A stretch of 63,030 nt of DNA, the filler included, from Malassezia furfur (Eukaryota): NCBI GenBank assembly GCA_052055015.1. It is 3 parts of 3 records of this genome, joined end to end, with 100 filler letters (N's around TTAATTAATTAA, not from the genome) between each part and the next. Parts side by side here need not be neighbours in the genome. Positions count along the whole stretch, not along the records: positions 1 to 20,979 come from JBQJIT010000171.1; positions 21,080 to 42,032 come from JBQJIT010000172.1; positions 42,133 to 63,030 come from JBQJIT010000173.1. The stretch is one strand, 5' to 3'. A program made the translations under genes and the position numbers. The notes under the pieces were generated by a model. The model was given only the letters and a program-made list of their open reading frames with translations, had not been told where the DNA came from and did no database searches. This document shows, one piece after another, positions 1 to 60,784 of this stretch (position 1 is the first letter of the stretch; the number at the start of each line of letters is the position of its first letter).

Positions 1-348
1 GCCAGGCGGCAAGGCGGCGCCGGGCAAGTGCACGGGCACCGCGACGCCGCCCGCCGACGCGCCGCGCGAGAGCTGGCTAAGCTCGTACCAGAGATCGCTC
101 ACGAGTCTCGCCAACGGCAGCGCGCGCTCCCAGGCGCAGATCAACATGCAGCTGCTTCACAAGCGCGACGAGATCCTCGCCAAGTACGTTGCACATGCAC
201 TCACACAGCCTCGGCGAGGGGATGAGCGACTTGGAGCGCAGCGCAAAGGACTTCCTGAAACAGTACGTCTCGTGACTCATGCAGAACGCGCAACTCGGCA
301 CTCAAGGCGGCCGCGCGCGACAAGTTTGACAAGTACGCGAGTATGTAG
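1..348 (+). CDS. 3' end of a tomosyn/Sro7 (lethal giant larvae family)-like protein with a C-terminal R-SNARE-like motif; 5' truncated
   Basis: Removing introns 184-208 (25 nt) and 263-284 (22 nt) gives ...QINMQLLHKRDEILANLGEGMSDLERSAKDFLKQTRNSALKAAARDKFDKYASM*, which resembles the tomosyn C-terminal SNARE helix. Confidence 0.55.
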
Positions 349-478
349 CGAGGTAGCCCACCGTGTCCCTGCACACGCACCGCACAAGCCTGGGCCGGCT
401 CACCGCCGCTGCCGACCAGCGCCCTCTCTTTCACTCCGCTTAACCCCCACCCCCGGCCTCCACCCGCACCCCTCCACC

Positions 479-3400
479 ATGGCGCCGCACGCGTGCCGCA
501 CGGCGCTCGAGGCCGTCGCAGCCTCGGCGGCGGACCTCGACGCGTGCTATGCCGCCTGGAACGCACACTCGTACGGGTGGCATGCGGGGCCCGAGTTTGC
601 ATGCGGCCCCGCGACGCAGGGGTGGAGCGCGGTCGTCGACGGGCAAAATGTCCACGTCGCGTCGCCAGCGCTCTGGCGCGTCGCCCTCCCGATCCGCGCC
701 GATGCCGCTCTCCCAAGCACGCCGCACCCGCTTGCGGGACTTGCGACCTTCCGCAATGCTGTCGACGCCGAGCTGCGGTTCCTCGAGCGCATCGAGGCAG
801 GCACCACCGCCGAATCCGCATCGAATGCGCGCTACCTCGTTGCGTTCTGGGCCGAAGTGCTCTACACGCTCCTAACGCGGGGAACCCTGCTCGCGCTCAA
901 CGCAGAAATCGCCACACGGACACGCACGGTGCGCATCTCGATTGTCGCGCCCAAGCAGTGGATCCGCCTCGTACCCATCCGGCGCGACGCACTGCGTGCA
1001 GAGTTCCGCGAAGCCGATGCCCTGCTGGATCTCGACGACCTTCCGCAAGACGACAGCGCAGCGATCGAGCAGTCGAGCATTTGGCAGATCGCATGCGACG
1101 TCGTGGCCGCCGCGGATGCGCAGGCACAACGCCCAGCGCTCACACTCGCTCTCGTGCGCCTAGACGAGCGCGATGCCGACATGGCGCCTGCCCCCTCCGG
1201 GCCGGCGTACTGGCATGCGTCCGAGGATGCGCGATTTGCGTGGCGCCTCGCTGCGCTTGTGCGCCGGATCCGCGCGCTCCATATCGATGTGCGCTTCGGC
1301 CCACGCAACGTCGCGACCGACACGCCGACCGTGGCCGACTCGTACCCTGCCTTGCCGCGTCCGCCAACGCTGCCCACGCTGCGTGCCACGCCGACACTCA
1401 ACCTGGATACGAGTGCACTGATTGCACTGGTCAGCGACTTGTCGCATGCGCGGCCGGGGCCGGACATGGAGCAGCGCCTCTCCTCCCACTCGAACCGCGC
1501 ACTCGCCGAGCAGTATGCGTACGAGCAGCAGTCCCCGCTGTGTGCTGCCCTGGCCGAGGCGTGTGCGCCGGTGACGCATCTCGTGGCCTCACCCACGTCG
1601 CTCGCCAAAATGCAGCAGATCGTGCACAAGCTTGGCTCGGACGATGAGCAGCGCCGCGCCGCAGCCCTATGCCACGGCAACGCCGTCCAGTTTTGGGCAG
1701 GCTCGCGGTGGGACGCCTCGCCGATTTCCACGCAGCTCGTGCTGCCCATCACGCGCGAGGTAGACGCATCGCACTCATACGCGGGCGACGCAACCACGCA
1801 CACGCTCGCATCACACATGCGCACGGCGCTCCAGGCGGCCGCTACATCGTCGGCGCGCGCCAAGACCCTGGGCGCCTCGCCCCACACTGTCGAGGCGCTC
1901 GAACTCGGCCTGGATGCATCGGTCACGACGCTGACGTCGCATGCAAACGGCGTCCAGCAGCTCGCCGCTGCTACGACCGACGCCCTCGACTCGGCAACGC
2001 ACCTCCCGCCATACACAGGCGCACCCACGACGGCCGCCCTCTGGCTCGTCCGACCCCGGTCGCTATGTGGTCCGTGCGCAACAGGGTCAGAGGCGCCGAG
2101 TCCCCCCGTGAAGCCGGTGGCCGACGTCGAGGACATGGCGCGAGTGTCCGAGGGATCCGACGTGCCCAGTTCGCCGTCGAGCACACAGTCTCCGCCCATG
2201 CGCGCGCCGCGCACGCGCCTTGCGCGCCTCGTGCGCTGGATCATCGGCCCGCCGTACTCGACGCTGCGCCCCATCCAGCACTACCCTTGGTGGCCGTTTG
2301 GTGCACTCGAGTCGCGCTTTGAGCATGCCACTGCGGCCCTTGCATGGCGTCCGCCGCCGCCGCAGTCGCACCTCCCAGCGTGGCTCACGCCGGACGACGA
2401 GGCGTTTGAGCTCCTCCCGCCGTCGACGCCACGTGCATCGCCGCCGACGCACCGCGGCGCGCTCTGGCTGAGCCGTGTGCATGCCACGTTCATGGTGAAC
2501 CGCGTGCACTATATCGCGCTAGTGTGCGTGTGTGTTGCGTGGCTGTTTGGCTTTGCAGTGCTCGTCGACCGCAACTGGTTCCATGCAGAGGTGGAGACAG
2601 TGCATGGGTGGACGTCGCCGCAGTACGTCGACTGCACCTCGACCTACTGGCTGCGCAACGCCGCGTGCGGACTGGATGGTGCCAAGTGTGCGCCGTTCGA
2701 GGCACCCGCGCAGCCATTCCGGTGCCCGAGCGGGTGCGCAAGCACCATACTGCTCAATCCCCGCACGGTCGGCGATGCCCAGTACAACTACCAGCCACTC
2801 GTCGTCGGCGGTGGGCCACACAACGCCACCTCCTTTACGCCGTACCGCGCCGACTCGTTCATCTGTGCGGCGGCCCAGCATGCGGGCGTGCTGGGCAGCG
2901 GCGGCGGCTGTGCGTCGCTGCGGCTCACCGGCGCCTATGCCAACTTTACCGCTAGCACCGCCCACGGCATCGAGAGTTTTCCCTTCGCAGGTACCTTTCC
3001 GTCGTCCTATGTCCTGGAGCGCGTGAACGGCAGAAACTGTGCCGACACGCGGTGGAAGACGTACGTGCTGGACGCTGTCTTCTCGGCAATCGTGGGCCTC
3101 GTCGTGCGGCCGCAGCCGATCGTGCTCCTCTTCATCCTGGCGATCGTGGGGTACTGGCATGTGAACCTCGTGTCCGAGTTGCGCGACTTCCCGCCGCCGG
3201 TCGGCGAGGCTGCGGGCGACTTTGGGCCGCACCTGTTTGTGACGTACGCGGCGTGGCGCATCGCCATCCGGTACGTCTGGCCAGCGTTTGCGCACGTGCC
3301 GCTCGAGTTTGGTATCGGCACGCTCGGCCTCTGGTGGCTCGGCGTGCTGCTCGATGTGGTGTTTGCGGACGTGCCACTGCAGCGGCTCGAGGGGCACGAT

Positions 3401-4114: not shown

Positions 4115-4138
4115 AATTGCACACGCGTGACCTCCACC

Positions 4139-4484
4139 ATGTCCGACGGCGGGGAAAGCTGCGAGGAGCTGCTGAACCTGCTGCACCAGCGCCTCGTGGC
4201 GACGGGCGAGTGGAATACGCTGCTTGCGCAGCTCCGGCAGCTGCTCGAGGAGAGCGAATGGGATACCCAGCTGCGCGACCAGGCTGAGCGTACGTGTCAC
4301 AATGCTCATCCAGGCGAGGCACGCGCGCAAGATCCGCTGCATCTGCCCACGCTTGTCGCCAAGCTCGGACCGTACGCCCAGAGTAGGTGCAATGTCTCAC
4401 ACAGAAACCTTGCCGAACTCGGTGCGCGATACCATGTCGGCCAAGATCCGCGACTTTCTCGACCGCAACCTCGAGGACGCCTAA
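4139..4484 (+). CDS. SUS1: SAGA/TREX-2 subunit Sus1/ENY2
   Basis: LHQRLVATGEWNTLLAQLRQLLEESEW...PYAQKTLPNSVRDTMSAKIRDFLD after removing introns 4290-4313 (24 nt) and 4383-4404 (22 nt). Confidence 0.85.
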
Positions 4485-4537
4485 GTGGTGCTACTCCACG
4501 CGCCGCGCAAGGGCGCGTCCGCGGCGTTGGGCGGTTT

Positions 4538-5188
4538 CTATGGCGTGACCTTGGTTTCAGACCAGTGCTCCTCCGTGCGCTCGTACACGGTGCGCTTCAT
4601 CTCAGCGAGGTCCAAAACATCGACTTTGTGCGGCTCGATGAGCAACAGTGCGAAGCTGCGTCAGCGGCACACCCCATACCTTGTAGGAATAGAAGAGGCG
4701 TCAACTTCGGGCGGCGGCGCATGCGCCGCGTCCGCTAGCGGGACACCGGGGGGTGCACCTCGGAACGTGTCCTGCAAACCAGGACCCAGCGCATGCCACA
4801 CACGCTCGCGCTCCGCGTCGAGGTCCCCCGACTCGAGCCCCCGCCAGGCATGCTCGGCATGCGGAAGGACAGTGGCTGTGCCACTGATGCGGAACTGTGT
4901 GAGCTAATGCCTTACCTGGACTTTGGCTGGCGCAATCCACCACGCCAGTTCGACGGCCGGCTGCGCACGGATCTCCTCAACCTTGGGGGCACGGACGTCG
5001 GTCGTCGTGACTAGCGTTGTGCTGTCGCGCAGAAAGCCGCGGTGCACGACATGGCGTACGTGCGGCGCTCCACCACACACGGATGCTAATGCGTAATAGC
5101 CTACATAAGTACGACACGTACCCGCTGAGCGGTCGCCCTTCGGATTGGCCAGTGCCTCTTGAATCCGCGCTTTCCAGGCCGGGATCAT
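4538..5188 (-). CDS. Pyridoxamine 5'-phosphate oxidase-like FMN-binding split-barrel protein
   Basis: PHVRHVVHRGF, TTDVRAPKV, ELAWWI...QFRISG, FALLLIEPHKVDVLDL, W...VTP; introns 5101-5121, 4895-4915, 4656-4679. Confidence 0.8.
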
Positions 5189-5252
5189 CGCGCTAATGGA
5201 GGTGCGCCCTATTAGATTTCCCCATACTCCGCTTCCCCACTTTGAGACCACC

Positions 5253-7045
5253 ATGTACAAGTCGCTCTACAACGAACAGAAGCATCCGAGCGACCTGTCA
5301 TTACCGCAGTTTGTCTTTCGGTATCTCGACAAAGACAGGAACGAGGTACCGATTTTACACCCTTCTCCGTTCGGCTCGCGCAGCGAGTCCAAGGCGCTCA
5401 CATTGCTCGACGTGCGCGACGGCGCGTATGCCATCGCCAAAAGTTTCCTATCGCCCGACTACCCGGGTGGGCCATGGAAAAAGGGGGAGGTCGTACTGTT
5501 TCTCACCGAAAACCAGGTATGTCAGCTCCAAAAAAAAATTAACGCAGCATGACTACCTCATGGTCTGCCTCGGTGTGATGCTAGCAGGCGGAATTCCAGC
5601 CTTGCTCAACCCGCAATTTACAGGGAATGAACTTCTTGTGATGATGAAGAAGGTGACCCCTCGCACAGTGTTTGCTTCGGCAGCGACGTTTGACGCGGCC
5701 GATGCAGCTGTAAAAGAATACGCACGGACCGCCGACTCTGTTCCGGTATACGTTTTTGAAGAGGACCACCCGCGCAGCCTGCAGAAGATCTTGAAAGAGC
5801 CTATGATGCAAACATCGCACGACATTGACGTGCCTTCATGCTCCCCAACGAAGGATACCGCCGTATACTGCTTCAGCTCCGGCACGTCGGGTATGCCCAA
5901 AGTCGTCTGTTTGTCGCACTTCAATGTCATCGCCAACGTAATCCAAACGGTCGCAACGCTCGGTGGCCGTATGAACAAACCGCGCTTTGACGATGCAGGG
6001 TGGTATGACCAGCCGCTGTTGCCTCCCCAAGACGGCACGAACGAGTTCCACTTGTCCATTCTGCCGCAGTTCCACTGCTACGGTCTGCTGATGGCCGTCG
6101 CTTCGCTGCACACATCCACGCCCTGTGTTGTATTCTCACGCTTCAAGGTGGATCACTTCTTTGAGGCAGTGCAGCGATACCGCGTGACGTTCATGTTTGT
6201 CGTTCCGCCTATGCTCATGGCGATGGCCACGTCGACTTTGGCGGAAAAGTACGACGTTTCGTCTATCCGCTCATTTGCGTCCGGCGCTGCATCACTGTCG
6301 AAGGAGCTTTGCGCCCTGGTATATAAGAAGAATGGCATCCCCGTCACCGATGGCTACGGTATGACGGAAATGTCCCCGCTTATTGCACTCCAGACCGAGG
6401 CAGACATTAAGCGGCATCATCTCGACGTTGGCCGTCTGGTCCCTAATACCGAAGCACGCATTATTGACATCGATACAGGGAAAGACGTCGAGCCCGGCGA
6501 GCCCGGTGAGCTCTGGCTGCGCGGTCCTCAGATGATGCTGGGGTATAAAGACAACGACGAGGCCAATGCCAAGGCATTTGTGCCCAACATGTCGGACCCG
6601 GAGCGCTTCTTCCGCTCCGGCGATGTGGTCTCCATTGACAAAGACGGTACGCTGTGCTGAGCTAACCCAGGCTACATAACCATCCGTGAGCGCATCAAAG
6701 ACGTGATTAAATATAACGGCTACCAGGTTTCCGCATCCGAGCTGGAGGATGTCGTGCGCGAAGTCGACATCGTCAAGGATGTCGCGGTCGTTGGCAAGAT
6801 CAAGAAGGACAACATTACCCGCAATGAGTTTCCGTGGGCCTATGTCGTGGTCAACAACGATGCCAAGAACCAGCCTGAGGAGGAACGCACAAGCAAGATC
6901 CTGGACTATGTGAATTCGCGGGTGCCCCCCTACAAGAAACTGCGTGGTTTGACTTGGATTGATTCGATCCCTACCAGGTATGTACCGCAATGCATAACAC
7001 AGCTCGGCTGGAAAAGTTTTGAAACGTGAGTTGGCAGACGAATAG
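5253..7045 (+). CDS. AMP-binding acyl-CoA synthetase, 4-coumarate-CoA ligase-like
   Basis: FSSGTSGMPK, GYGMTE, GELWLRGPQMMLGY, FRSGD, RIKDVIKYNG, IPTSSAGKVLKR; introns 5517-5547, 6647-6670, 6978-7002. Confidence 0.9.
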
Positions 7046-7052
7046 TGGGTAT

Positions 7053-12316: not shown

Positions 12317-13592
12317 ATGTCGCCCATCCCCGTCGCCTTGCTTGGGTACGGTAACTCGGCTCGGACGTTTCATCTTCCGTTCGTAAAGTCCTTGCCCGAC
12401 CAGTTCCGCCTGCAGGTCGTGCTGCAGCGCCCACGTCCAGAGGGATCGACCTCCCCGAATGCCGCACTGGACCTTCCCGACGTTCAGGTCGTGCCGGACA
12501 TTGATGCTGCCCTCAAAGCACTACCCGAAGGAGGACTGGTGATCATCACCACCAACAATGCATCGCACTTCCCATATGCAGAGAAGGCGCTCCAAGCAAA
12601 GATGCATGTCCTTGTTGAAAAGCCTGTGGCTGTTCACGAGGACGAGGTGAACAAATTGGCACAACTCGCACGATCTGTGGGGAAGGTGTGCACTGTCTAC
12701 CAGAGTACGTGCGTTTGCTAACCCAGACCGCCGCTTCGATGGGGACTATCTGACGCTGAAGTCGTTGATTAAGCACGATGGCGGACCTAACCCGTCGGCG
12801 CTGGGTCTTCCAACGTATTACGAGTCCCGGTTTGACCGATTCCGCCCCATTGCCAAAGGTGGATGGCGGGAAAGCGTCGACCCGGAAACCGAGGGAGGCG
12901 GTATGCTGTGGGACCTGGGTGCACATCTCGTGGACCAAACCGTTGCGCTGTTCGGCCCTCCCGAAACCGTTTTCGGCATGGTCCAGAACCAACGTGGCCA
13001 AGGTCCGGAGAATGTGGATGACGACTGGCTGGCCATCCTCACGTATCCGCCTCATGATCCTCCTACAGAGGAAACATTTGCACCGGGCAAACGCCTCGGT
13101 ATGCTTCGTGCGGTCCTTGGTTCGACCTGCCTGTCGGCCCACACGGATGCAGAGCAGTCGCGTTTCCGTGTGGAAGGCACGCTTGGCTCCTATGTCAAAA
13201 AGGGAACCGACCCCCAAGAGGGTCAGCTCAAGCTGGGCTGGACCCCGGCGACCCATCCTGACACGTTCGGTTCGTATGCCAGCGATGCACCAGCTTCCTT
13301 GCGTCTCGCTCAGCTCTCAACAAGTCAACCGAACCAAGAGGTGTCTGGAACCAACCCTCCCAAGCTAGCGGTTGCGAGCATCCCCACATTGCCTGGCCGC
13401 TACATTGATCTATACACGAACTTGGCCGAGACCATTAGTGCAGTCAATGCGGCCCCCACAGCAGAAGAAGCTGCTAGCATTGTGGACAAACTCTTGGGCA
13501 TCAAGCTCGAACATGTTGCAACTTCCACCCGGATTCTCCGGCTTATTCGTCAAAGTGCCAAGGAAGGCCGTGTGCTCCCCTTTGTAGGCTAA
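12317..13592 (+). CDS. Gfo/Idh/MocA family NAD(P)-dependent oxidoreductase
   Basis: LLGYGNSA, HVLVEKP, YQNRRFDGDY restored by removing 22-nt intron 12705-12726, GGMLWDLGAHLVDQ. Confidence 0.9.
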
Positions 13593-14566: not shown

Positions 14567-15751
14567 CTAGTCAACATCGTTGGAATTGTCGCCCTCATCT
14601 TTTTCTTGCTTGTCAACTGTCTCGCCAGATGCCTGCGCCTCGTCGTCCTCTTCTTCGTCTTCGTCTTCTTCATCCGCTGCATCTTTCTCATCCGAGTTTC
14701 CAGCATTACCATCTGTTTCGCCCCGCTCCTCTTTTGCTTCTTCGGAGAGTTCAACCAGTTCAAATCTTGGTTAGCAAGACACATACTGGACAACGAAGAA
14801 CACATCGTTGGTCGACAGGTTCTTTGCAACATAACGCACAGGTTGACCATCCCAGTACTTTTGCAGATCAAAATGCAACCCTCCGTATGGCAACACGAGC
14901 TGCAGCGTGTTGAAGTCAATAAACCCATTGCAGAAATCCACGGTCACGACATCTGCTGGCGTAATCGAAAGTTTTTCGCGGTTCGCCTTCTTCCCCAACC
15001 AGGACGCCCTCGCTGAGGAAGCTTTCGAGACCGTTTCTGACTCCAAATTCTTTAGAGTTGTTTCGTCGATGCCCGTTTTCTCGTCCAGGATCGACTCACC
15101 GTCCTTTTCTGTGCGGAACAGAGGCGCAATATTTTCATTCACAAAATGTTGCTCGCTGTCGCCATCCGGCGTCGGGAAAGGTGGCCATGAATCGGTTTTA
15201 AACATTTCCTCGGCTGTCTTGGCCTCGTAGGGTTGTTTGGCACGGTTCGCCTGGACACGGTACATCGTAGCTAGCAGCGGGGAAAATGCCCATGGCTTGT
15301 CGCCATAAAGATCGTGTTTCACTGCGTTAGAGCCAAATGCATACAGTTAGGGTCCACATAGCTTGCAAACCGCAGGGCAAGGCTGGTGCCGTACGGAAGC
15401 GAGTCCTGGATGAGTGGATCAACTTACACGAATCGGGCGATCAAACTCGTTTCCGAACACGAGTTCGTCCACCGAAATCTCATCGGAAAATTGGCCTGCG
15501 TTAGGTTATAGCGTACCTTGCACCTGAATACTATAGGTCATCGCATCCCCGTACGGTTCTTGGAAGTAGGCTGTGGTTTTGTTCGCGGGTGTACCGTCCG
15601 GCGATTCGCCCACAAAGTCTTTGATGCGGACCGTGAGACGTCCATGGAACCGTTCGCTATCGACCACAAAAGGGTCGTTGTCGTGGTTCACATTGACGAT
15701 CTCCAGATGGTCTACGTCGGGGCCTGCAGAGATGCGAAGCTTGGGTGCCAT
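14567..15751 (-). CDS. DUF1769 family protein with acidic tail
   Basis: KLRISAGPD, FHGRLTVRIKDF, YSIQVQG, LVFGNEFDRPIR, DLYGDKPWAFSPLL, DFCNGFIDF, KYWDGQPVRY; introns 15496-15516, 15406-15427, 15322-15344, 14766-14786. Confidence 0.8.
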
Positions 15752-15849: not shown

Positions 15850-17440
15850 ATGCGCAAGGTACGTGGGGTGGCTAACATAGTTTCTCGATAAAATCGGCGA
15901 CAAGATCGGTGGTACGGACATCAAAAACGTGCCACCCGTGGACACAATCCCTACGGACAAGCCGATTGATTCGCGTCGGATTTTCCAATACCGCAAACAG
16001 CGGGGTGTGAATCTTGGCTCCTGGTTCTCGCTCGAGTCCTGGCTCACTGGCAGCCTGTTTGAGAAAGCGGCTGAGCCGCGTGGAAGTGAGTACGATGTGG
16101 TAAGCAACATGAGCCCCGAGGATGCTCGGAAGATGTTGGAAAACCACTGGAGCAACTTCATCAACGATGGCGACTGGAAATGGATGGCTCAGCACGGCGT
16201 CAATTCGGTGCGCCTGCCGATCGGCTACTTCCACTTCCTTTCTGGAGCTGATCAGGGTCGCTTCTCGTCCCTGCTGAAGAACACCGAGTTTGAGAAGTTT
16301 GCCCCCGTTTACCAAGGCGCATGGCAGTATATTCTACAGGGTATCGAGAAGGCGCGTGCCCACAACATCGGCGTGCTCGTCGACTTGCATGGCGCACCTG
16401 GTGGCCAGAACAAGGATGGTCACTGCGGAATCTCGAACAGCAAGTGTTCGCTGTGGCACGGCCTACACACTGGCAAGAACCAGCGCCTGACGATCGAGAT
16501 TTTGGTCGACTTGGCGGAAGCGCTTGCCGGCTTCGACAATGTGATTGGCCTAGAGCTGCTGAATGAGCCCGAGAACAACTCAGGTCTCGAGGCCTTCTAC
16601 ACCAAGGCCATTGCGGCCATCCGTGAGAGTTCTGTCCCGCAGGCGCGACAGCTCCCTATTTATTTGGGAGATGCGTGGGTCACCAAGTTCTATGCGGACT
16701 ACGTGGGCGAAAACACGACCGCTGGAAGCCCTCTCGCGCTAGACCACCACGTGTACCGCTGCTTCACGCCCCAGGATCACAACACCTCGGCAGAAGAACA
16801 TGCCCAGAACATCGATCCGAACGGCGACGGCAAAACGGCGCGGTGGCTGCAGGACGTTTCCAACAAGGCGCATGGGTCGCTCATCATCGGCGAGTGGAGT
16901 GGTGCGCTCAACCCACGCTCATTTGAGCTGAGCAAAATCCAGAGTAAGTTGCAGGCTCGCACGCTATGGTCCAAGGCGCAGTGGATGGCTTTTGAGCGCT
17001 TCACTGCGGGCTACTACTACTGGACGCTCAAGAAGGAGGGCGGCCCTGACCCTGGATGGTGCCTGTACACGGCCATGGAGAAGGGGTCCATGCCCCCCTC
17101 GCTCGATCCGCTGCAAGGACGACGGCCGGATCTCCAAAAGATCCAGGGTATCCTGCAGCAGGAGCTCAAGAACTCCTACGAGGGACACTGCCACTACTGG
17201 GACAGCCAGGTTGGTGGCTCCAAATTTGAGCACTGGCGCTACGAGCGCGGCTTTGAGCTCGCGGCCAAGGACGCGCTTCAGTTCATCCAGGCAGGCTCCG
17301 AGATCGGGTTCTCGCATAATTTGGGCCTGCTGCGCCTGGCTGGGCACGAGAAGGAAACCGGAGGCAGCAAGTACCTTTGGGAGTTTCAACACGGGTACAA
17401 GGCTGGCGCGGCCGCAGCTAGTCGTGTATTGTATGCCTAG
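15850..17440 (+). CDS. GH5 exo-beta-1,3-glucanase-like protein, no signal peptide
   Basis: RGVNLGSWFSLESWL, VRLPIGY, DLHGAPGGQN, ELLNEP, IIGEWS; first exon MRK then 22-nt intron 15859-15880. Confidence 0.9.
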
Positions 17441-17484: not shown

Positions 17485-18507
17485 CTATTCTTCTTCTTCG
17501 GCGTGCACACTCACCGTGACGCCCGAAGCGTTGCCGGTTTCGCCATCAGCCGAGTAAGGGTCGTAATACGATATGCCTGAGCGCGGCGATGGCGCCAATG
17601 ATGATGGCAGAGCCTTTGGCGGCGCGGCCTGCGCGGCCGGCGGTACTGCGGCCGGCACTGCGTCGGTTGGCGCCGCATCGTCGTCTTGTTCCCATGTCCG
17701 CTGGGGTTTGGGGATCCGGTCTGGGTGAGCAAGAGGGAACGTACGTAGGAGACCGTATCCAACGCCACAGCCAAGCAGTCCCTCGCCACCCCAGTCCCGG
17801 TTCGGCATGATGACGACCTCGCGCGTGTGGTCGTAGTCGCTGTTGTACACATACATGGCGACATTTCGCCCCGCGTGCTGCTCAATCAGCTGGAAGAAGT
17901 CGGCCTCGCTCTGGAGCGGACCGCCTGTCCATCCAATGATGTAGTCGCCGTACGGCACGAGCCCTGCCGAGTCGGCGGGGCTGCCCTCGAGCACGTCGAG
18001 GATGTGCCATACATGGCTGATTGACACGGTCGGGTTGCATAGGCGCAGGGTGAGCCCGAGCAGCGAGGGCTGTGCATTGCCCTTGGTGCCCGCCTCTGAC
18101 CATGCGCGCGATGGCACGACGCGCACGTCTGGGGTCAGTCGCGTCCTAGGCCGCGCACGCACCTCGGTAGGCCTGCTGCTTGGAGCTCCACACATTGAGC
18201 ACGATTTCGCGCCCCTCGTTGGCCTCAACCGTGGTCCAGTTGGCGTGGCCGAGGCGCGCGCCGACGGGCACGCCCGGGGGGTACTCTACGCCGAGGTCTG
18301 CGAGCGGGCGGCCGTTGATGCCGATGCAGAAATCGAAGAAGGGTTCGCTGCGTGAGTGTGCGTGACGACGTACAAGCCCGCGTACTGTGCCGGGCTGCCC
18401 TGCGCGACACGGATCACATGGTAGCCCTGCTTAGGGGCTGTTATGAGCGGCACACACGTACCGATGCTGGCATCCCCGGTCTCCGGCCGGCTCTCCGAGG
18501 CGCCCAT
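17485..18507 (-). CDS. GRH1: GRASP55/65 Golgi reassembly stacking protein
   Basis: Myristoylation-type MGASES start, [36 protein letters not shown] (restored by intron 17721-17744); other introns 18438-18461, 18348-18373, 18129-18162. Confidence 0.9.
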
Positions 18508-20533: not shown

Positions 20534-20979
20534 GGAACGAGTGTGGTGGTACGAGGGGACGCGCCGTAGAAGCCGACGCGACCGGTTGTCCCTGCTGTTT
20601 TCTACACTGCGGCACACGGAATGCCGGGGTTAGAGTTGACTAAAATCGCGTCCTCATTCGACGCCGCCAATGGCCGGCAGGCGCATGCCAGGCGTCCGTG
20701 CCACATGTCACGCCACAGCGTCGCACACCCGCAACCGCATCGGATAAAATAATGTCTGATTCGCTACATCGGAAAAGCATCGGAACGCCACACGCGTCGT
20801 GCCTTGCACCTATCCGATTCGGCAGGGCTTGGCATCGCCCAATAATATGTTTTCACACCAACCGGGAGCCCAAGAGGCGACGCGTACCGCGTCATGTGAA
20901 GGGTGGCCGTAAGGTCCAATCGTAAACGAGAAGCCCCGTCGCGGGGCGGATTAGCAAAGAAGGGGATCGGGATGGGCGG

Positions 20980-21079
20980 NNNNNNNNNNNNNNNNNNNNN
21001 NNNNNNNNNNNNNNNNNNNNNNNTTAATTAATTAANNNNNNNNNNNNNNNNNNNNNNNNNNNNNNNNNNNNNNNNNNNN
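20980..21079. other. Artificial assembly spacer N44-TTAATTAATTAA-N44
   Basis: Exactly 100 nt; central 12-mer at 21024-21035 places stops in all six frames; identical copy at 42033. Confidence 0.95.
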
Positions 21080-23294: not shown

Positions 23295-23645
23295 CTTGAC
23301 GGTGAGGGTCGTGGGTGAAGAGACGAGGCGCACTAGAAGCTTTGTACACAGCCAGAAACAGGCCAGTCTGGCGCGCCACCTGACGCGCTCTAAGGTCCTG
23401 CAAGGCACGGTTGGGACATAAGCCAAGGGGTGACAGGTGGCCCAATGAGATGCCGGACGATGCCTCGGGGCTCCAGGGTTCGACGATTTCCATCGGGTCT
23501 TAATTCTATGGCTGACAAACCATTCCGATCGCGGCCACACAGCGGCCGAATCGTGCCCTGGCGCACAGGCCGGCACGCGGGTGGCGTGCAGTGACCCGCG
23601 TTGCATCGGAACGCGTCGTGCCAAAATCGCATCGCGCGCCCTACG

Positions 23646-42032: not shown

Positions 42033-42132
42033 NNNNNNNNNNNNNNNNNNNNNNNNNNNNNNNNNNNNNNNNNNNNTTAATTAATTAANNNNNNNNNNNN
42101 NNNNNNNNNNNNNNNNNNNNNNNNNNNNNNNN
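42033..42132. other. Artificial assembly spacer N44-TTAATTAATTAA-N44
   Basis: Identical to 20980-21079; interrupts the 3' ends of both AKR1 and RPC40. Confidence 0.95.
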
Positions 42133-42751: not shown

Positions 42752-42966
42752 GATGCGCTGCCCAACGTAGCACGAGCGTCGCCAAAAAGCCCTACCCAAA
42801 GATGGACGCCGTGGAGCGAGCGCCAAAAAAAATCGGCCACGTGATGGCGGCCCGAGCGGCGCCGTGGGGGGAAGGCGGCGAGCCGGCACCCAAGCGCATC
42901 TGGGGTAGATACATTGTTTTCGCTAGCGCAACATTGGTATGGGATACAGCTTCGTACGCACGGCAT

Positions 42967-44000
42967 TCATTCGATGTTAATATCGGGAGAATCCGGCTCC
43001 GACTTGGCGACCAACAGGTCAAAGTGACCGGGGCGGTACAGGAGGTGGCCCACGTTGACCATCTGCCCTTGGTCCAGATCAAAGCGCACCACGTCGCACG
43101 CATTCGGGTCACTGCCAGGCACCGCCTCCTTGTTTCCAGGCATGTCGCTCGCGGCCTCGGCCTCCTCACCCACCGGCTCCGTTTCCGGCGGCGCATGCGC
43201 ACTGGACAGGTAAACGACGTCCAGAGTGACCTTGAGGGCCGTGCACAGCGCGGTGATCTGAAGATGGTCCGCATCTTTGCCAAATGCCTCAACTTCGCGG
43301 TTGGTAAACTCTTCCATCGTCGGGGGGTTTTCACTGCCCGTCGCCGACACCAAGAACGGCGTGTAGTCATTCGCATTGGTCTGTACGGTCAGTCCATCGG
43401 ATCGTCAACCTACCTTGAGGAAGGCGCTCGTGACCATGCGGAGGAAAACGACAATGTTGTTGCTCTTTTCCGCGTCGTTGAAGGCCTCGACGAGACGGTC
43501 GACCGTAAGCGCCGGCCGCGTGGGATCCGTGGAGTGGATCTGACCCATGAGGTCGTGGAACGGCTCATAGAATTCCTTCACCACCTCCTCATCGTAGCCA
43601 GTCTGCTTCAATAGCTCCAGCAATGAGTCGAGGTGTTGGCCTGCGAAATGGTGCAAGGGACGATCATCCATGGTCAAGATCGTGTAGAGATAGGTAAACC
43701 CAAATGCGCGGTAGAAGCAGTTCCCATCGCCCTTCAACCGACGGATCCCGATAAAGTCCGACTTCTCTTTCAGCCATTTTACCTTGCCAAGGAACTGACG
43801 GTTGTTGGCATACTCTTGGAGGAGGACGTCCAGCGGCTCAACTTCCGAGACGAGAGGGCTATTGGAGCCTTCCTCGTCCAGGAGCTTCTGGCCAAGATCA
43901 ATACGTTCAGAATCACTCAAACGTTCAAGTCTGACCGGTTAGTTCACCAATAGGATATGTGGGATACCTACTCAGACGGCTTCGTCTCCGGGTTGCTCAT
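42967..44000 (-). CDS. Otubain-type deubiquitinase (peptidase C65)
   Basis: RRLKGDGNCFYRAF, DADHLQITAL, LYRPGHFDLL; introns 43931-43971 (41 nt), 43381-43413 (33 nt). Confidence 0.9.
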
Positions 44001-44094
44001 TATGGTTTAGGCCGAAACTACAGCGACTCCACTTGCCACGGGCCACCCAGCACCGAAGCCCCAGGGTCTTGTTCACGTCATCAAGTGACAACCC

Positions 44095-44568
44095 CCAATA
44101 TAAAAGCTCGAGCAAATAGACTTTTAATCCTATAAATAACCATTGTTATTATTAATTTAAATACTAAAATGATGTATATACGTAGAAAATAATTTATATT
44201 AAACTAAATTAATTAATTATTTATATTTATTTATTATAAGATACTATAATGCAATATTCACGATTATAATTTAATTAAATAGAGTTAAGTATTCCATAAT
44301 GCTCAAAATAATATAAAACTGAATATTTTTAAAAAATAAAAATAGTAACAATAATTTAAAATGCTCAATTTATAGTTTGAATAAACAGTTCATAAGTTTA
44401 GGTAAACAATCAAATGTACATTTGCGTCAATAAATTGTTTAAAAGCTATATATATTGTTAAAGGATTATGATATTTTATTTTATTTCTACTTTAGTCTAT
44501 GATCAAGTGTTATTTATTCGTTTGTATTTGAATTTTGTGTTTTTTTCTGAATAAATTATGATTTTATT
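44095..44568. other. AT-rich non-coding island, putative centromere core
   Basis: Manual count 82 G+C in 44101-44560 (~18% GC) against a ~60% background; intergenic, no ORF; flanking genes also reduced in GC. Confidence 0.75.
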
Positions 44569-44630
44569 GGTCGAAGTATGGGCGGAACTAAGAAGGCTTT
44601 GTCAGACAGTCTGTGTGGAGATCTCTCACC

Positions 44631-46277
44631 ATGAGCGAAGACGAAGTGTTCCGTGCGAACCGCCCGGCCTTCGCCGTCACGATCCGGAACTGGTTAAACC
44701 GATATGTGCTGAATCATTCGCGAAGTCTTGCCGCTCACCAGGTAAGACCTGCCCATCATATGGATGATAGGTACTGACTCTGGGCTCAGGCGTCAGTACA
44801 GCATCCATGGCTGGATGCGTACTTCAAGTATTCGTCCATGTTGGGTACACACACCTTCTTTATGTTGTTCTTGCCACCCGTGTACCAAAATGGAGGAGCT
44901 TCTGCTGGCCGAATGTAAGGAATCGGAAAGTGCTCATTGCAGTCTGATTTTAACTTCCGCACTTGCTGTCTACATTACGGCCTTCGTGAAAGTTCGTATG
45001 GACTGGTTGAATGGCATTCTGACACCTCTTAGGATTTCTTCTGCGTCCCTCGCCCAGCCTCTCCGCCAGTTCGCAGGCTCCTGATCGGGACACATCATCT
45101 GGAATATGGATTCCCCTCGACGCATTCTGCTAACAGTGTGGGGATGGCAATCTTTTTCTACTACCTAGTGGAGATGGCCCGACCCTACGCCCTTGCAATC
45201 GTTTCTGATGAAGATCCCGTGTTCGTCCACTGGTTTGCTGAGACCTTCTTGATGGAGGGCTTGATCCTACTCTATGCATGGACTATTGTGTATGGTCGGC
45301 TCTATTCGGGGATGCACAGTGCATTAGGTACGGCTGTCGACGCTATGCAACTAACCACCAGACTGCTTCGTGGGTTGTTGCATTGGTGTTTCGGTGGCAT
45401 TGTTCGCCATCTGGATCGACCCCAAACTGAGCGACTTCTTGCTTATCCAAAATCTCTATGGTTTGTATCCACTACACTGTACTGACCAAGCAGCGCCGAT
45501 GGTCATCTTCGGGGCAGCATGTCTGTCCCTCGCTTTTCACATCCCTCCCGTGGGACCTTGCCCGTGCTATGAGGATGGTATGTATACTCAACCATTCATG
45601 ACTAGCGGTTGCCTTCGTTGGTTCATGGACGGGTGTTTGCTTGGGCAACTGGCGCACGAATACGGATTATTATGCTGACATGGCCGTGTTGGATGCCACC
45701 TTCCGCTGGATCGCCTCTTGGATTCCGACGTCGATTCAGACTTCGTGTCAATCCTTTTGGTTCCAGGCGATCAGCAATGACTATGTGAAATTCCTGGTCA
45801 ATCTGGCTTTTGGTGAGTGCCAGTTGCCTTTGCTCATACCAGGTGTCATTCCAGTTGTCCTTTTCAAAGTCCTCGCTAGTTCGCCCATCAAAAAGGCTTT
45901 CCCTGCCATTTATATGACGGTGGTACGCCGCTTGAGGAAGAGCCAGGTGCAACTGAGCCCAGTACCTTCCGCGGAAGGGTCGACGACGTCAGGTCATGAT
46001 GTGGAAACGAGGGGCCAGTTGCGTCGTCGCGAAAATGCGGCGATGAATGGGATGAATGCCACTGCGTCCCCTCTGAAATCGAACGACCTGCACATCTCTA
46101 GGTGGGCTTCAGTGGATGAAAAGGTCTGTGTTGGTATGTATACAACGCCAGCTGACCTACCAAGACGCCCCCCGGTTGTTGATCTATACCGGTATTGGAA
46201 TAATGGGTGCATGGACATCTGTTCTGTTCATCGACTACTTCCGCGTAAGAATGATTGAGCTTGTAAAGATATCGTAG
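44631..46277 (+). CDS. Long-chain base (sphingosine)-1-phosphate phosphatase, PAP2 family (Lcb3/Ysr3-like); 8 introns
   Basis: LDAYFKYSSMLGTHTFF, KDFFCVPRP, EYGFPSTHS, RLYSGMHS, CPCYED; introns 44742-44789, 44915-44942, 44992-45032, 45328-45361, 45461-45490, 45578-45605, 45813-45842, 46134-46164. Confidence 0.85.
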
Positions 46278-46332
46278 ATTAGACCCAGAAGCCCCTCACG
46301 ATTGTACATCTCTCATAACGATAGCCAGCGTT

Positions 46333-47005
46333 TCATGGCGATGGGAGGATGGCGGCCGCTACCGATCTCCCTTCTTCCGAGAGCAGGTTGTACGTCGAAC
46401 AGGCATTCCGCTGCGAATTAGAACATGAGTGACGTACCGAATTCTGTACATCGAGCTGGATTCCGAGCGAGTTTAGATACATCTTGATGCTATTGGGCAC
46501 GGGCAACACAGTATTGCCAGTGCCTAGGATGAGAATTTCTGGAGTAAGCATGCAGATAGCGACGCTACGCACCTGGACGAGGCACGACGACTTCAAAGAG
46601 GGTCCAGATGTCATTGACCCACGATTCCCAGCCCTTGCCATTGGGCATTGCCGACATAGGGTCGATATTGGGCGGGTTCCAGAGGAATACTTTGCCGTTT
46701 AGGAAGATGCAAGGGGAAGGAACCACGAGTCCATCCGCGAGCTTAATCTCCTTTGCAGTTACCTTGGCAATACGGATAGGTAGAGTGTCGTCCTCGAGAA
46801 TGTTGGACAAAGGGTTGTCGAAATCGAGATCGTCACTGCGTTAGGAACCATCGGTGACGTACGCCTGCTCCCTTCGTGCGCGCGGAACCGAGGTTGTATA
46901 GGGCACGCAAGCCATGCGAGCAGTATTCTGGACGCGAGGAATCATCGCAACGCGAGCGAGGCGCGAAAGTGTGGGCCTGTGCGGCAAACATGTTCGGGAG
47001 AACAT
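46333..47005 (-). CDS. NDUFAF3/Mth938-like complex I assembly factor
   Basis: VVPRPEILILGTG, LGIQLDVQNSRNACSTYNLLSEEGRSVAAA; introns 46836-46862, 46539-46572, 46411-46437. Confidence 0.85.
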
Positions 47006-47097
47006 GGCGTCAGGGACTGGCAAGGAACTATGAAAATTGGCCGCATATTCCGCATTGAAGTGCACCGACTCCTCCACTCTCCTGCGCTTGGATCAAC

Positions 47098-47790
47098 ATG
47101 TCGTCAGCGCTGGCTCCAAAACTGAATGGTGCGGGCATGAACGGACGTCCCGTCGTCTTCTTCGACATAACGATCGGAGAGACGCCTGTGGGCCGTATCA
47201 AATTCGAACTCTTCTCGGACTTCACACCCAAGTATGTCCAGATGGATCACTGACGTCAGGACTGCGGAGAACTTCCGGCAACTATGCACGGGCGAACACA
47301 GGCATGTCTTTTGGTCTGACCCAGGTTCAATCACAAGCCTATGGGATACAAAGGCTCGATTTTCCATCGTGTGATCAAAGACTTTATGTGCCAGGGGGGC
47401 GACTTTCTCAATGGCGACGGCACAGGCAGTTTCAGCATCTACGGCGACAAGTTCGACGACGAGAATTTCCTAATGAAGCATGACGCAGCAGGTCTTCTCA
47501 GCATGGTATGTCGACCACATCCAGCTTACCAAAGGCAAACTCAGGCCCGAACACCAACGGGTGCCAATTCTTTATTACGACCCAGCCGGCTGATTTCCTC
47601 GATGGAAAGCACGTCGTATTTGGCAAGGTGGGTCGCGATTGCCGTGCTCATACCAGGTCGTCGACGGCATGCTTACGCTCCGCAAAATCGAGAACGTCCC
47701 GATGGGTGCAAACAACCGGCCACGCTTGGAAGTCAAAATTGCAGGTACGTCGGCCTTACCGCTCTGACTCCAGAATGCGGTGAAATGTAA
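47098..47790 (+). CDS. PPIH: Cyclophilin H (U4/U6 snRNP-associated PPIase)
   Basis: [62 protein letters not shown] end; introns 47232-47259, 47302-47324 (GC-AG), 47506-47534, 47628-47656, 47745-47773. Confidence 0.88.
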
Positions 47791-47814
47791 ATCAGTAATG
47801 TTGTCCCCAAATTG

Positions 47815-50557: not shown

Positions 50558-50950
50558 CTATCCCTGCAGATACCGCGCAAAGACTGGGTGAGAAGCGCTC
50601 GACGTACACCAATAGCTCCAACGCCGACCGAGCCATCTCCCGAAAAACGGGATCAACACGAGCTGGAACGCCATCTGGAGCTGGCGTACGCCCTCGTCCC
50701 ATTCCTGCAGGGCCAACCGGTCTTGCTCGCGCTCAAACGCTTCCGAGGACGTCACACTGTCGGTCGACAGGTTGGTCTGCATCACATGCTGCCAGGGCGA
50801 TGGGATCGGCTGCTTTTCCGCCTCGTCGTCCAAATACGCCGGCAGTGCCCTCTTGGTTTGTGGCAGATCCGTGTGCGGCCCCGACGCCATCTCCTTGTAC
50901 TGGCGGATCCAGTCGGGGTCGGCCGCCTCGCGCTCCGGACTCGTGGCCAT
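50558..50950 (-). CDS. MIM2: Mitochondrial import protein Mim2-like
   Basis: EWDEGVRQLQMAFQLVLIPFFGRWLGRRWSYW; probable 24-nt intron 50584-50607. Confidence 0.7.
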   Translation of the reverse strand: MATSPEREAADPDWIRQYKEMASGPHTDLPQTKRALPAYLDDEAEKQPIPSPWQHVMQTNLSTDSVTSSEAFEREQDRLALQEWDEGVRQLQMAFQLVLIPFFGRWLGRRWSYWCTSSASHPVFARYLQG

Positions 50951-51807: not shown

Positions 51808-52497
51808 ATGGCTCCGCTGCGTCTCGGCTCGGTCGCACCGGACTTCGCCGCGGAGACGACGCAGTATGTAGTGGTGCGCGGCTGACGCAGGGGCCGCATC
51901 CGCTTCCACGAATGGATCGGGGATGCGTGGGCCATCCTCTTTTCGCACCCTGATGACTTTACGCCGGTGTGCACCACCGAGCTCGCCGAGGTCGCGCGGC
52001 TCGAGCCCGAGTTTGCGCGCCGCGGCGTCAAGGTGATTGGCCTGTCGGCGAACGACGTCGCGTCGCACCTTGCGTGGATCGACGACATCAACGACATCGG
52101 CGGCACGCAGCTGCGCTTCCCCATTATCGGCGACCAGGACCGCACGGTCGCGACGCTGTACGACATGCTCGACGCGCTCGACCCCACAAACCGCGACGCG
52201 GCCGGCATGCCGTTCACGGTGCGCGACGTGTTTGTGATCGATCCACAGAAGCTCATCCGGCTGAAACTGTCCTACCCCGCCTCCACTGGCCGGCACTTCC
52301 CCGAGATCCTGCGCGCGATCGACTCGCTGCAGCTCGGCGACGCGCACCGCGTCACGACGCCGGCCAACTGGCAGCGGGGCGATGAGGTGATTGTGCACCC
52401 CACGGTCGCCGATGCCGAGGCCGCGCAGCTGTTCCCCGGGTTCCGCACGGTGCGTCCCTACCTGCGGTACACGCCGGACCCGAGCGGCGCGCCGTAG
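51808..52497 (+). CDS. PRX1: 1-Cys peroxiredoxin (Prx6 class)
   Basis: LRLGSVAPDF, FSHPDDFTPVCTTE, YPASTGRHF, TPANW; intron 51864-51890; alternative in-frame ATG at 51781. Confidence 0.93.
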
Positions 52498-52500
52498 TGT

Positions 52501-53952: not shown

Positions 53953-54310
53953 GGCGAGGTGCGCAACGGCGTCCTGCGTCAGCGAGGCGCACGCACGTCA
54001 TGGTCGCGGTTCATGTGTTTGCAGATCCGCTCGGACGCGCGCCCGATGGCATCTTCCTGCCCCACACTCATCGTGGAGTGCAGCACACCTCCACCTCTGT
54101 ACAAGGCCGGCCCGGCCACAAGTCCAATGCAAGATGAGCTCTCAAAGCTACCGATTGATGAAACTATGACGATATTAGCAACGCGATGAAAGGTCTGATG
54201 AGGGGAGGAGGCACGCGGGCGGCAGCCAGGCATGCCCGTGTGCGCGAGGAAGAATGCAGTGCGGATAGGCCGCGGGGGGAATGGGACGGGAGGGAGGCGA
54301 AGGGAGCACC

Positions 54311-57233: not shown

Positions 57234-57593
57234 ATGGGCGAGGAGGGCGTGCCGGTCACGGTGGAATTTGGGTACGTGCGCGGCTGACGCAGCGGCGGCA
57301 CCGAGCTGCTCCTGGCGCCCCCGCACGCCAAGGTGCACACGCTGACAGTGCGTGGCGACGCGGGCCGCGCGCCGGACATGCGTGCGCTCGTACAACACAT
57401 CCGCACGCACCTCCTCCACGAGCGCGAGGAGCTGTTTGTGGAGCACGACGCGGTGTAGGTGGCATGCTAACGCAGGCGCGCGGGCATCCTTGTGCTGATC
57501 AACGACAGCGATTGGGAGCTCGAGGGCGAGATGGACTATGTACTGCAGCCGAAGGACCACATCGTCTTTATTAGTACGCTGCACGGTGGGTAG
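57234..57593 (+). CDS. URM1: Ubiquitin-related modifier Urm1
   Basis: VEFGGGTELL...[18 protein letters not shown]...FISTLHGG*; two 21-nt introns 57272-57292, 57455-57475. Confidence 0.95.
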
Positions 57594-57612
57594 CCCATAG
57601 AAGCGCGACGCG

Positions 57613-59481: not shown

Positions 59482-59599
59482 CAACTTTTCTTCGCCAGGC
59501 CCGGCCGGCTGCGCAACGTGCGCCCCAGGCACACACGCACGCCCCCCCGACCGCATCGGCCGAGGCCTTCTTCGCTCACTCCACTTGGCGTCAAAAAAG

Positions 59600-60784
59600 A
59601 TGGTGCGTCCGAGGGCAGCGTAGCTGACGGCAGACGACCGTGCAACGCATCAAAGAGGTCGAGGATGAGATGGCCCGTACGTGACCCGCACTCACGCCAG
59701 GCACGCAGAAGAACAAGGCCACCGCGTACCATCTCGGCCAGCTGCGTGCGAAGCTCGCGAAGCTCAAGCGCGAGCTCATTGCGCCGACCGGCGGCGGCGG
59801 CGGCGGTGGCGGCATGGGCTTCGACGTCGCGCGCACGGGCATTGCGAGCGTCGGGTTCGTCGGCTTCCCGTCCGTCGGCAAGTCGACGCTCATGTCCGGC
59901 CTGACCGGCACGACGTCCGAGGCCGCCGCCTACGAATTCACCACACGTACGTCCTCGCCCGCGCTCACCCAGTCACCACCGTGCCGGGCACCATGACCGT
60001 GCGTGGCGCCAAGATCCAGGTGCTCGACCTGCCGGGCATCATCGAGGGCGCCAAGGACGGCAAGGGCCGCGGTCGCCAGGTGATTGCCGTCGCGCGCACG
60101 TGCAACCTCATCTTCATCGTGCTCGACGTGTGCAAGCCGCTGAAGGACAAGCAGATCCTCGAGGCGGAGCTGGAGGGCTTCGGCATCCGGCTGAACAAGC
60201 GCAAGCCGAACGTGATCGTCAAGAAGAAGGACAAGGGCGGCCTGTCGATCACCAACACCGTCCCGCTCACGAAGCTCGACCACGACGAGATCCGCGCGGT
60301 GATGAGCGAGTACCGCATCGCGAACGCCGACATTGCGTTCCGCGAGGACATCACCGTCGACGAGCTGATCGACGTCATCGAGAACAACCGGATATACATC
60401 CCGTGCATCTACGTGCTCAACAAGATCGACAGCATCTCGATCGAGGAGCTCGACCTGCTCTACAAAATCCCGCAGTCGGTGCCGATCTCGTCGCGCATGT
60501 GGCTCAACGTCGACGAGCTGGTCGACAAGATGTGGGACGAGCTGAACCTCGTGCGCATCTACACCAAGCCGCGCAAGTCGCCGCCGGACTACACCGCGCC
60601 CGTCGTGCTGCGCCGCGACAAGTGCACCGTCGAGGACTTCTGCAACGCCATCCACCGCGAGATCTTCAAGCAGTTCAAGTACGCGATGGTGTGGGGCACC
60701 TCGGCGAAACACGCGCGCGGCCAGCGCGTGGGCGCCGATCACGTGCTCGAGGACGAGGACTGCGTGACGATCTTCAAGCGCTAG
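59600..60784 (+). CDS. RBG1: Developmentally regulated GTPase Drg1/Rbg1
   Basis: [50 protein letters not shown] domain; introns 59603-59633, 59677-59700, 59947-59972. Confidence 0.95.

Follow-up and report, generated by a model that had tools for sequence, protein, structure and literature searches.

Very short putative U2-type introns in a gene-dense, 63-kb stretch of DNA attributed to Malassezia furfur

The stretch of DNA analyzed here (63 kb in total; hereafter, the window) carries genes that are interrupted by very short introns, and these introns are the subject of this study. The window is GC-rich: 50–68% GC was found per 2-kb window, except for a single AT-rich island. Both strands are gene-dense, and about 20 long open reading frames (ORFs) were confirmed by Pfam. 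The GC content at the third codon position is 79% in the Pfam-confirmed long ORFs, so the reading frame is easily scored. Four stretches of 44 bases within the window read as N, and masked stretches are present at 20980–21079 and 42033–42132. Scans of the window with Rfam and ARAGORN gave no match. With an exon of the gene at 24.8–27.5 kb as a query (the one gene searched), the closest protein is ppk32 of M. furfur (97% identity), the next being from M. vespertilionis (58%). On this one protein search, we take the source to be nuclear DNA of M. furfur or of a very close relative.

Gene models were obtained by excising signal-defined intron candidates from each strand and then searching the spliced sequence for ORFs, which yielded 43 models with 69 introns. 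Two of these introns were dropped as false: 33100–33154 (55 nt), which truncates an amino-acid transporter, and 37599–37640 (42 nt, in frame), which finds no support in the DUF383 profile. Three more were added by reading, giving a final set of 70 introns; the statistics on intron anatomy were taken over the 67 automated ones. A dynamic-programming gene finder with weak intron models was abandoned after three versions, all of which fused genes by long false introns.

On average, a gene has about 1.6 introns (70 introns in 43 models over 63 kb), and one gene has 13. The lengths are 21 nt (15 introns), 22 nt (14), 23 nt (10), 24 nt (8), 25 nt (3), 26 nt (3), and 27–41 nt (17), with a minimum of 21, a median of 23, a mean of 24.6, and a maximum of 41 nt. 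A first-pass annotation of the window had proposed about 78 introns by hand, with a mode of 21–22 nt and a floor of 21 nt. Both the mode and the floor hold, none of the 70 introns being shorter than 21 nt. As for the total, 70 introns were recovered independently, about eight fewer than in the earlier count. The earlier count of short introns outside the AT-rich zone (54 of 59, with 16 of 21 nt and 14 of 22 nt) is close to the one obtained here, where 52 of the 58 introns outside 42.9–47.8 kb measure 21–26 nt.

The splice signals are strongly enriched over chance. The strict pattern GTACGT-N5-9-CTNAC-N1-4-AG has 21 matches on the two strands of the window; in 100 dinucleotide-preserving shuffles, the mean is 0.05 and the largest number is one. 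This confirms the first-pass observation as a whole, that tiny introns are pervasive here, and the intron which it gave as an example is present at 26728–26748 exactly as quoted. A broader, signal-only scan (GT[AG]NG[TC]...YTNAY...AG, one candidate per 3' end) returned 128 candidates.

Candidates were also submitted to a frame test, in which the 20 codons on each flank had to show coding-like codon usage, be free of stops, and be in compatible phases. On a single flank, 88.5% of the stretches in the true frame pass the test, as do 2% of those off frame. As a null, pseudo-introns with a length that is not a multiple of three (non-3n) were placed in intron-free coding DNA, and 2.0% of them pass (269/13377). 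Among the signal-only candidates of 21–26 nt, 44 of 56 pass, and the non-3n candidates (22, 23, 25, and 26 nt) do so in 28 of 33 cases. Only one of the 13 candidates of 13–20 nt passes; this is an 18-mer, for which the test is uninformative because its length is a multiple of three. The onset of the signal-only candidates at 21 nt is abrupt. Once the accepted introns are removed, non-3n GT..AG pairs pass at a flat 4–8% at every length from 8 to 40 nt, with 4–7% for GT..AG pairs of 8–20 nt, and the short ones that pass are devoid of splice signals, save one nested inside a real 23-nt intron. Hence, no sign of introns below 21 nt was found within the window among GT..AG pairs from 8 nt up. Over the accepted introns, 56 of the 68 tested pass. 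Lengths that are multiples of three (3n) are not avoided (28/67 introns), the mode itself being 21 nt; Paramecium is said to avoid introns of such lengths.

The gene with 13 introns, at 24796–27481 on the plus strand, is kinase-like, with similarity to ppk32/SCY1. Its spliced product of 799 aa aligns without gaps to homologues at all 13 junctions. These homologues come from M. vespertilionis, Entomortierella, Fennellomyces, and Phaeomoniella (names as labelled), together with one unnamed protein; all but the first are distant fungal homologues. In order, the introns are located at 24831–24856 (26 nt), 24908–24928 (21 nt), 25101–25122 (22 nt), 25309–25330 (22 nt), 25749–25769 (21 nt), 25997–26017 (21 nt), 26094–26115 (22 nt), 26194–26215 (22 nt), 26279–26299 (21 nt), 26485–26507 (23 nt), 26610–26631 (22 nt), 26728–26748 (21 nt), and 26828–26849 (22 nt). 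The second one, next to a short exon, fails the frame test; the twelfth, already mentioned as the earlier example, matches the strict motif.

Relatives provide a further view of the same junctions. Three unspliced ORF products from related assemblies (56–72% identity) carry inserts of 7–9 residues exactly at two junctions and end at a third. Such inserts are expected if orthologous 3n introns are read through. At the fourth intron (25309–25330), the inserts of the unspliced ORF products P0002 and P0003 are 7 aa long. A metagenome locus, L002 (45% GC, 56% identity), shows candidates of 25–29 nt with the same signals. In L002:3600–5400, introns of 26 and 25 nt share residue and phase with 25101–25122 and 25749–25769, respectively, and a 27-nt in-frame element at the site of 25997–26017 is read through. 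One more candidate of 25 nt (5368–5392) lies near the last junction. The L002 locus is without counterparts for six of the 13 introns (residues 388–563), one of the six being common to the distant locus L008. Relatives thus vary in how many introns they have, and not only in how long these are.

L008 is a distant fungal locus with 68% GC. Its orthologue has seven introns of 67–82 nt, in which the branch motif lies farther from the 3' end. The residue and phase of its 82-nt, phase-1 intron are those of the 21-nt intron at 26279–26299. With these two introns orthologous, at least one of the mini-introns is of old origin and has been reduced in length about fourfold.

The public M. furfur model of ppk32 (P0001) measures 611 aa vs. 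799 aa for the spliced product, and it starts 109 residues late. It translates the 21-nt introns 25997–26017 and 26279–26299 as 7-residue inserts and is without conserved segments beside at least five other junctions. P0001 is a faulty model, as conserved exons are missing from it. The earlier expectation that gene finders with default settings would mis-annotate most genes here is thereby borne out for one gene, the public ppk32; the extent given in it, "most genes", goes beyond this one gene.

GT-AG ends are found in 69 of the 70 introns and GC-AG ends in one. The search required GT, AG, G at +5, and YTNAY, all other positions being free. The donor reads GTACGT in 34/67 introns, with A at +3 in 56/67, C at +4 in 47/67, the required G at +5 in 67/67, and T at +6 in 58/67. 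CTNAC is present in 55/67 (YTNAY, being required, in 67/67). Its middle base is free: G in 23 introns, C in 15, A in 13, and T in 4. A C occupies position -3 in 61/67. None of the 67 donors is of the U12 type; U12-type introns are characterized by an ATCCTT-type donor and a TCCTTAAC-type branch site. A scan for GC donors left a single credible case among 38 candidates (47302–47324).

The putative branch A is followed by 5 nt in 48/67 introns, by 6 nt in 15/67, and by 7–8 nt in 4/67. Its position within the intron is 16 in 16 cases and 17 in 15, and it is never lower. Between the donor and the branch motif lies a spacer of at least 6 nt without base bias, 50% of which is pyrimidine; a pyrimidine tract is hence absent throughout the introns. 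The architecture described in the first-pass annotation, with CTNAC close to the 3' end and no such tract, is supported, the putative branch A lying 5–6 nt from that end in 63 of 67. Length variation is confined to the donor-to-branch interval, while the distance from the branch to the 3' end is nearly fixed. The floor of 21 nt therefore corresponds to 16 nt, from the first G to the branch A, plus 5 nt.

Other genes of the window were examined with a Pfam scan done exon by exon, each exon alone. At no fewer than 14 junctions, the second exon takes up the profile where the first leaves it, and the one-residue gaps seen at junctions fit split codons. Short exons are missed by Pfam, among them exon 1 of Elf1, the first cyclophilin exon, and exon 2 of NXT1; hence, the junctions of these exons come from reading only. 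In the following account, an intron mentioned without comment passes the frame test.

At the beginning of the window, two introns on the plus strand, 184–208 (25 nt) and 263–284 (22 nt), have consensus signals and pass the frame test. The EnY2-like gene (plus strand) contains introns at 4290–4313 (24 nt) and 4383–4404 (22 nt), both passing; the exon upstream of the former matches the EnY2 profile at 4–38. Three minus-strand introns of lower confidence fail the frame test. Those at 4656–4679 (24 nt) and 5101–5121 (21 nt) have signals only; the one at 4895–4915 (21 nt), with signals that include a GTAAGG donor, follows an exon matching Pyridox_oxase_2 at 24–89 up to the exon end. In an acyl-CoA-ligase-like gene (plus strand), introns are present at 5517–5547 (31 nt) and 6647–6670 (24 nt), and both pass, the second one separating the AMP-binding and AMP-binding_C exons.

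The intron of a GFO/IDH/MocA oxidoreductase (12705–12726, 22 nt, plus strand) passes the frame test; the N-domain profile (3–119/120) stops at the exon end, and splicing gives YQ[N]RRFD. The Duc1 gene (minus strand) has four introns: 14766–14786 (21 nt), 15322–15344 (23 nt), and 15406–15427 (22 nt) pass, the Duc1 profile restarting at 113 at the second of them, after a 20-aa exon, and at 15496–15516 (21 nt) the profile runs across the junction (1–67, 67–90). The GRASP gene (minus strand) also has four. The intron at 17721–17744 (24 nt) fails the frame test, and its splicing gives GYGLL[H]RIP; those at 18129–18162 (34 nt), 18348–18373 (26 nt), and 18438–18461 (24 nt) pass. The two motifs that the earlier annotation saw restored, YQNRRFD and GYGLLHRIP, are thus recovered at 12705–12726 and 17721–17744, and the Urm1 and Elf1 exons that it named are confirmed by Pfam.

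A GMC oxidoreductase gene contains an intron at 23121–23149 (29 nt, minus strand). Two such genes stand in tandem on the minus strand, at 18668–20617 and 21133–23493, with the masked stretch 20980–21079 between them. In the RWD/UPF0029 gene (minus strand), the UPF0029 profile is continued across the introns at 23892–23914 (23 nt; profile 1–44, 51–70) and 23805–23829 (25 nt; 51–70, 74–107). The Elf1 gene (minus strand) has an intron at 27534–27554 (21 nt) that matches the strict motif and fails the frame test beside a 13-aa last exon. Its introns at 27654–27674 (21 nt) and 27730–27752 (23 nt) pass, and the exon downstream of the former matches Elf1 39–70 from its first residue. Single introns occur in an ankyrin gene (28250–28270, 21 nt, plus strand) and in an amino-acid transporter (34330–34358, 29 nt, minus strand), two in a RabGAP-TBC gene (28704–28725 and 30201–30222, 22 nt each, minus strand), and one more at 35261–35283 (23 nt, plus strand).

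The NTF2/Mtr2-like gene (NXT1, minus strand) differs in size: an intron of 187 nt was read from the sequence at 36226–36412 and ends CTGACCCCAG. Exon 1 matches the NTF2 profile at 2–68, and exon 2 is unconfirmed by Pfam. The 3' end of this putative intron, CTGAC-CC-CAG, is as in the mini-introns, and Rfam detected no RNA gene inside it. The DUF383/DUF384 gene (minus strand) contains introns at 36888–36911 (24 nt; DUF384 profile 1–35, 36–54), 37878–37902 (25 nt), and, in its 5' part, 38014–38036 (23 nt). Two introns of 23 nt are located on the plus strand at 39227–39249 and 39504–39526. The ankyrin-DHHC gene (plus strand) has, within the DHHC domain, an intron at 41436–41456 (21 nt) that matches the strict motif and passes the frame test; it is 3n and stop-free, and its unspliced reading is open. 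The intron at 41970–41991 (22 nt, plus strand), of lower confidence, matches the strict motif, fails the frame test, and adjoins the masked stretch.

In the otubain gene (minus strand), the Peptidase_C65 profile continues over the intron at 43381–43413 (33 nt; 3–149, 150–242). A second intron, 43931–43971 (41 nt), is of lower confidence: it has the signals and fails the frame test beside a 9-aa first exon. Two introns at 45328–45361 (34 nt) and 45461–45490 (30 nt), on the plus strand, pass and belong to a weak gene model with a low gene score. The DUF498 gene (minus strand) shows profile continuity at 46539–46572 (34 nt; 2–53, 55–86) and 46411–46437 (27 nt; 55–86, 88–109), and its intron at 46836–46862 (27 nt) has the signals and fails the frame test.

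The cyclophilin gene (plus strand) has five introns. The first one, 47232–47259 (28 nt), was read from the sequence only. The second one, 47302–47324 (23 nt), is the GC-AG intron, GCATGT...CTGAC-C-CAG; it was also found by reading, passes the frame test weakly, and is followed by an exon that joins the cyclophilin profile at 36. At 47506–47534 and 47628–47656 (29 nt each), the Pro_isomerase profile runs 36–93, 94–126, and 127–154 over the successive exons. The last one, 47745–47773 (29 nt), has the signals and fails the frame test beside a 4-aa last exon.

In Mim2 (minus strand), the profile (2–37/45) stops at the exon end before the intron at 50584–50607 (24 nt), which fails the frame test beside a 7-aa last exon. 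A peroxiredoxin gene has an intron at 51864–51890 (27 nt, plus strand), and a DUF2470 profile (1–12, 14–77) spans the one at 53974–53996 (23 nt, minus strand). The Urm1 gene (plus strand) contains two introns of 21 nt, 57272–57292, which passes the frame test, and 57455–57475, across which the Urm1 profile runs 8–56, 59–96. The DRG GTPase gene (plus strand) has introns at 59603–59633 (31 nt), 59677–59700 (24 nt), and 59947–59972 (26 nt; MMR_HSR1 profile 2–33, 39–110). The first of these is start-codon-proximal, immediately past the ATG, as is the intron of a GH5 glycosidase gene (15859–15880, 22 nt, plus strand), three codons past the ATG, which passes the frame test.

Intron length is unevenly distributed along the window. 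The 12 introns at 42.9–47.8 kb measure 23–41 nt, with a median of 29, and the 57 found elsewhere have a median of 22 (Mann-Whitney, one-sided p = 2.6e-6). This region (42900–47800) is a stretch of 48–57% GC, and within it lies the AT-rich island, at 44100–44500 (~400 bp, 16–18% GC). The island resembles, we assume, the short AT-rich centromeres described for Malassezia. A lower-GC stretch at 4–16 kb shows no comparable lengthening of introns. Such uneven shrinkage would suggest that deletion bias linked to recombination, or gene conversion, has driven it.

Taken together, these elements are most probably U2-type GT-AG (rarely GC-AG) introns that have shrunk to near the smallest size able to hold the three splicing signals, a reading to which we give, on sequence evidence, a probability of roughly 0.9. 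The splice-site consensus, the CTRAY-type branch motif, the colinearity of frame and homologues, and the shared intron positions all place them in the U2 type. Each intron begins with a strong donor, which reads GTACGT or is a near variant, followed by an unbiased spacer of at least 6 nt; CTNAC comes next, taken as the branch site, and then the CAG acceptor, with 5–6 nt after the branch A. Recognition would probably take place across the intron: U1 would bind at the 5' site and SF1, then U2, at CTNAC. The acceptor would be the first AG, 3–4 nt beyond the branch A, used without the help of a pyrimidine tract.

Several points weigh against this reading. Of the 68 introns put to the frame test, 12 fail it, in most cases beside exons of few codons. 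About 40 of the 70 introns are supported by signals and frame, and about 30 junctions have support from outside. Half of the 3n introns (14/28) have no in-frame stop, and with a stop-free 3n length, retention also leaves the frame open. Removal from the mRNA is deduced from homology and frame, and the branch nucleotide is placed in CTNAC by analogy with other fungi. The candidate filter favoured a branch-to-end distance of 5–6 nt, which inflates the regularity for the longer introns; in those of 21–22 nt, the space permits no other branch arrangement. Finally, the species identity comes from a single protein match.

With the introns taken as real, it is possible, if on balance doubtful, that they can be spliced only by a spliceosome with lineage-specific changes, as the first-pass annotation proposed. 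Pyrimidine-tract recognition (U2AF large subunit/Mud2) could be lost or altered, the 5' end of U1 could be altered for the C at +4, or the geometry of SF3b or Prp8 could accommodate the 16-nt path. A C at +4 would mismatch the usual 5' end of U1, and it is found in 47/67 donors. The absent pyrimidine tract, the 3–4 nt from branch A to AG in 63/67 introns, and the hard floor at branch position 16 point in the same direction, as do the ordinary 67–82-nt introns of the distant orthologue, with their branch motif farther from the end. However, longer introns with this 3' end are also present in the window, at 27–41 nt and, in one putative case, at 187 nt; hence, the machinery is not limited to introns of minimal size. 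Moreover, according to the published work, cited here and below from excerpts, Yarrowia, Trichomonas, and Giardia have branch sites anchored at a distance of 2–4 nt from the AG and no pyrimidine tract (PMC2483917), and conventional U2 and U2AF are kept in Stentor and in the myxozoans with tiny introns (PMC13644364). With conventional machinery in these last two, an adapted spliceosome is not a forced inference, as far as that account goes.

That the short elements, chiefly the stop-free ones of 21 or 24 nt, are retained and translated as small inserts is very improbable. The stop-free 3n introns described above would allow it, P0001 includes two introns as 7-residue inserts, and the unspliced reading through 41436–41456 still matches DHHC. 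However, the inserts are missing from all five other aligned homologues, and the elements have splice signals identical in kind to, and as complete as, those of the 39 non-3n introns, the retention of which would break the frame. The elements of relatives at the same sites differ in length and in sequence, and P0001, being also devoid of conserved exons, is a faulty witness. Least credible of all is the possibility that the real introns extend further and have different splice sites, or that the motif matches are due to chance or assembly artefacts: although P0001 jumps from exon to exon over longer stretches and a permissive gene finder readily built long false introns, longer introns would remove residues that are conserved all the way from Mucoromycota to Ascomycota, the short junctions are exactly where the Pfam coordinates carry on, and the shuffles give 0.05 matches against the 21 observed.

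Beyond the shrunken U2-type introns themselves, a wider proposal can be made only tentatively: the introns of the M. furfur lineage might stand at a floor that is hard and mechanical in nature, set by 16 nt between the 5' splice site and the branch A and another 5 nt up to the 3' end. They would be the shortest fungal introns outside microsporidia, while keeping strong signals and a density of more than one per gene. Such a floor could be accompanied by a changed choice of 3' splice site (no pyrimidine tract, AG 3–4 nt from the branch) and perhaps by a co-evolved U1 that suits the C at +4. If the hard floor and the deletion-bias driver are true, a transformable yeast would become a model for minimal-intron splicing. 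A sharp minimum combined with strong signals, in a yeast that can be cultured and transformed, offers a handle on the least RNA that a canonical spliceosome needs between its sites. On the practical side, public gene models of M. furfur would be unreliable wherever such introns occur (one gene was compared), and proteome-based work on this skin commensal and opportunistic pathogen inherits their errors.

Short introns are not a novelty in the genus, for which mean or median lengths of 30 bp have already been published. In M. sympodialis, 5350 introns were reported with a mean of 30 bp, 99% of them supported by RNA-seq, which had raised the number of supported introns by 156% (PMC5389616). For M. 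restricta, the lower limit of intron length in annotation was 20 and later 15; the median is 30 and the mean 37.2 (PMC6473144, PMC9241646). A review credits the genus with "very short introns" (PMC7426719). For M. globosa, the models have a mean intron of 76–79, with 76–85% of the junctions supported (Wu et al. 2015; PMC4634964); in our view, short introns were under-called there, and the mean does not contradict the other figures. The window resembles the published Malassezia in belonging, by protein match, to the same genus, in its compact genome, and in having about one to two introns per gene, with intron lengths far below the usual fungal size. It differs in its median of 23 and mode of 21–22, vs. 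published means or medians of 30. The excerpts of the published Malassezia accounts contain no length floor, no branch-site architecture, and no figures for M. furfur; no paper on these three subjects was found in a literature search, the coverage of which mostly excludes subscription journals.

The arrangement of the 3' end has its closest parallel in the introns with an anchored distance from branch point to AG, described by Irimia and Roy in 2008: 2 nt in Yarrowia lipolytica and 4 nt in Trichomonas vaginalis and Giardia lamblia (PMC2483917). As in the accounts of these organisms, a strong CTRAC-type motif stands nearly fixed 3–4 nt before the AG, and no pyrimidine tract is present. Fixed branch-AG spacing without a pyrimidine tract is thus common to both, whereas the highly intron-poor genome that goes with it is not found here. 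Those species are intron-poor, and the introns of Yarrowia are long (median 204 nt, PMC2483917); in the window, about 1.6 introns are present per gene, and the whole intron is minimal. Unlike theirs, the middle base of the CTNAC is free.

In size, the introns belong with those of other lineages. Paramecium has introns of about 25 nt, Stentor of 15–16 nt, and myxozoans a median of 22 bp, and tiny introns are also known from microsporidia and dicyemids (PMC13644364, PMC5014332). The size class and the sharp lower bound are the same, as far as those accounts describe them. However, the presumed branch of ciliate, microsporidian, dicyemid, and myxozoan introns is a weakly conserved A (PMC13644364), whereas a strong CTNAC and a GTACGT donor are found in the window. 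The list of lineages with introns below 30 bp in the available part of the same 2026 account does not name Malassezia (PMC13644364). Unlike the other tiny-intron lineages, the host is a culturable basidiomycete yeast. Very short introns were already known from Malassezia, and those of the window are a more extreme example.

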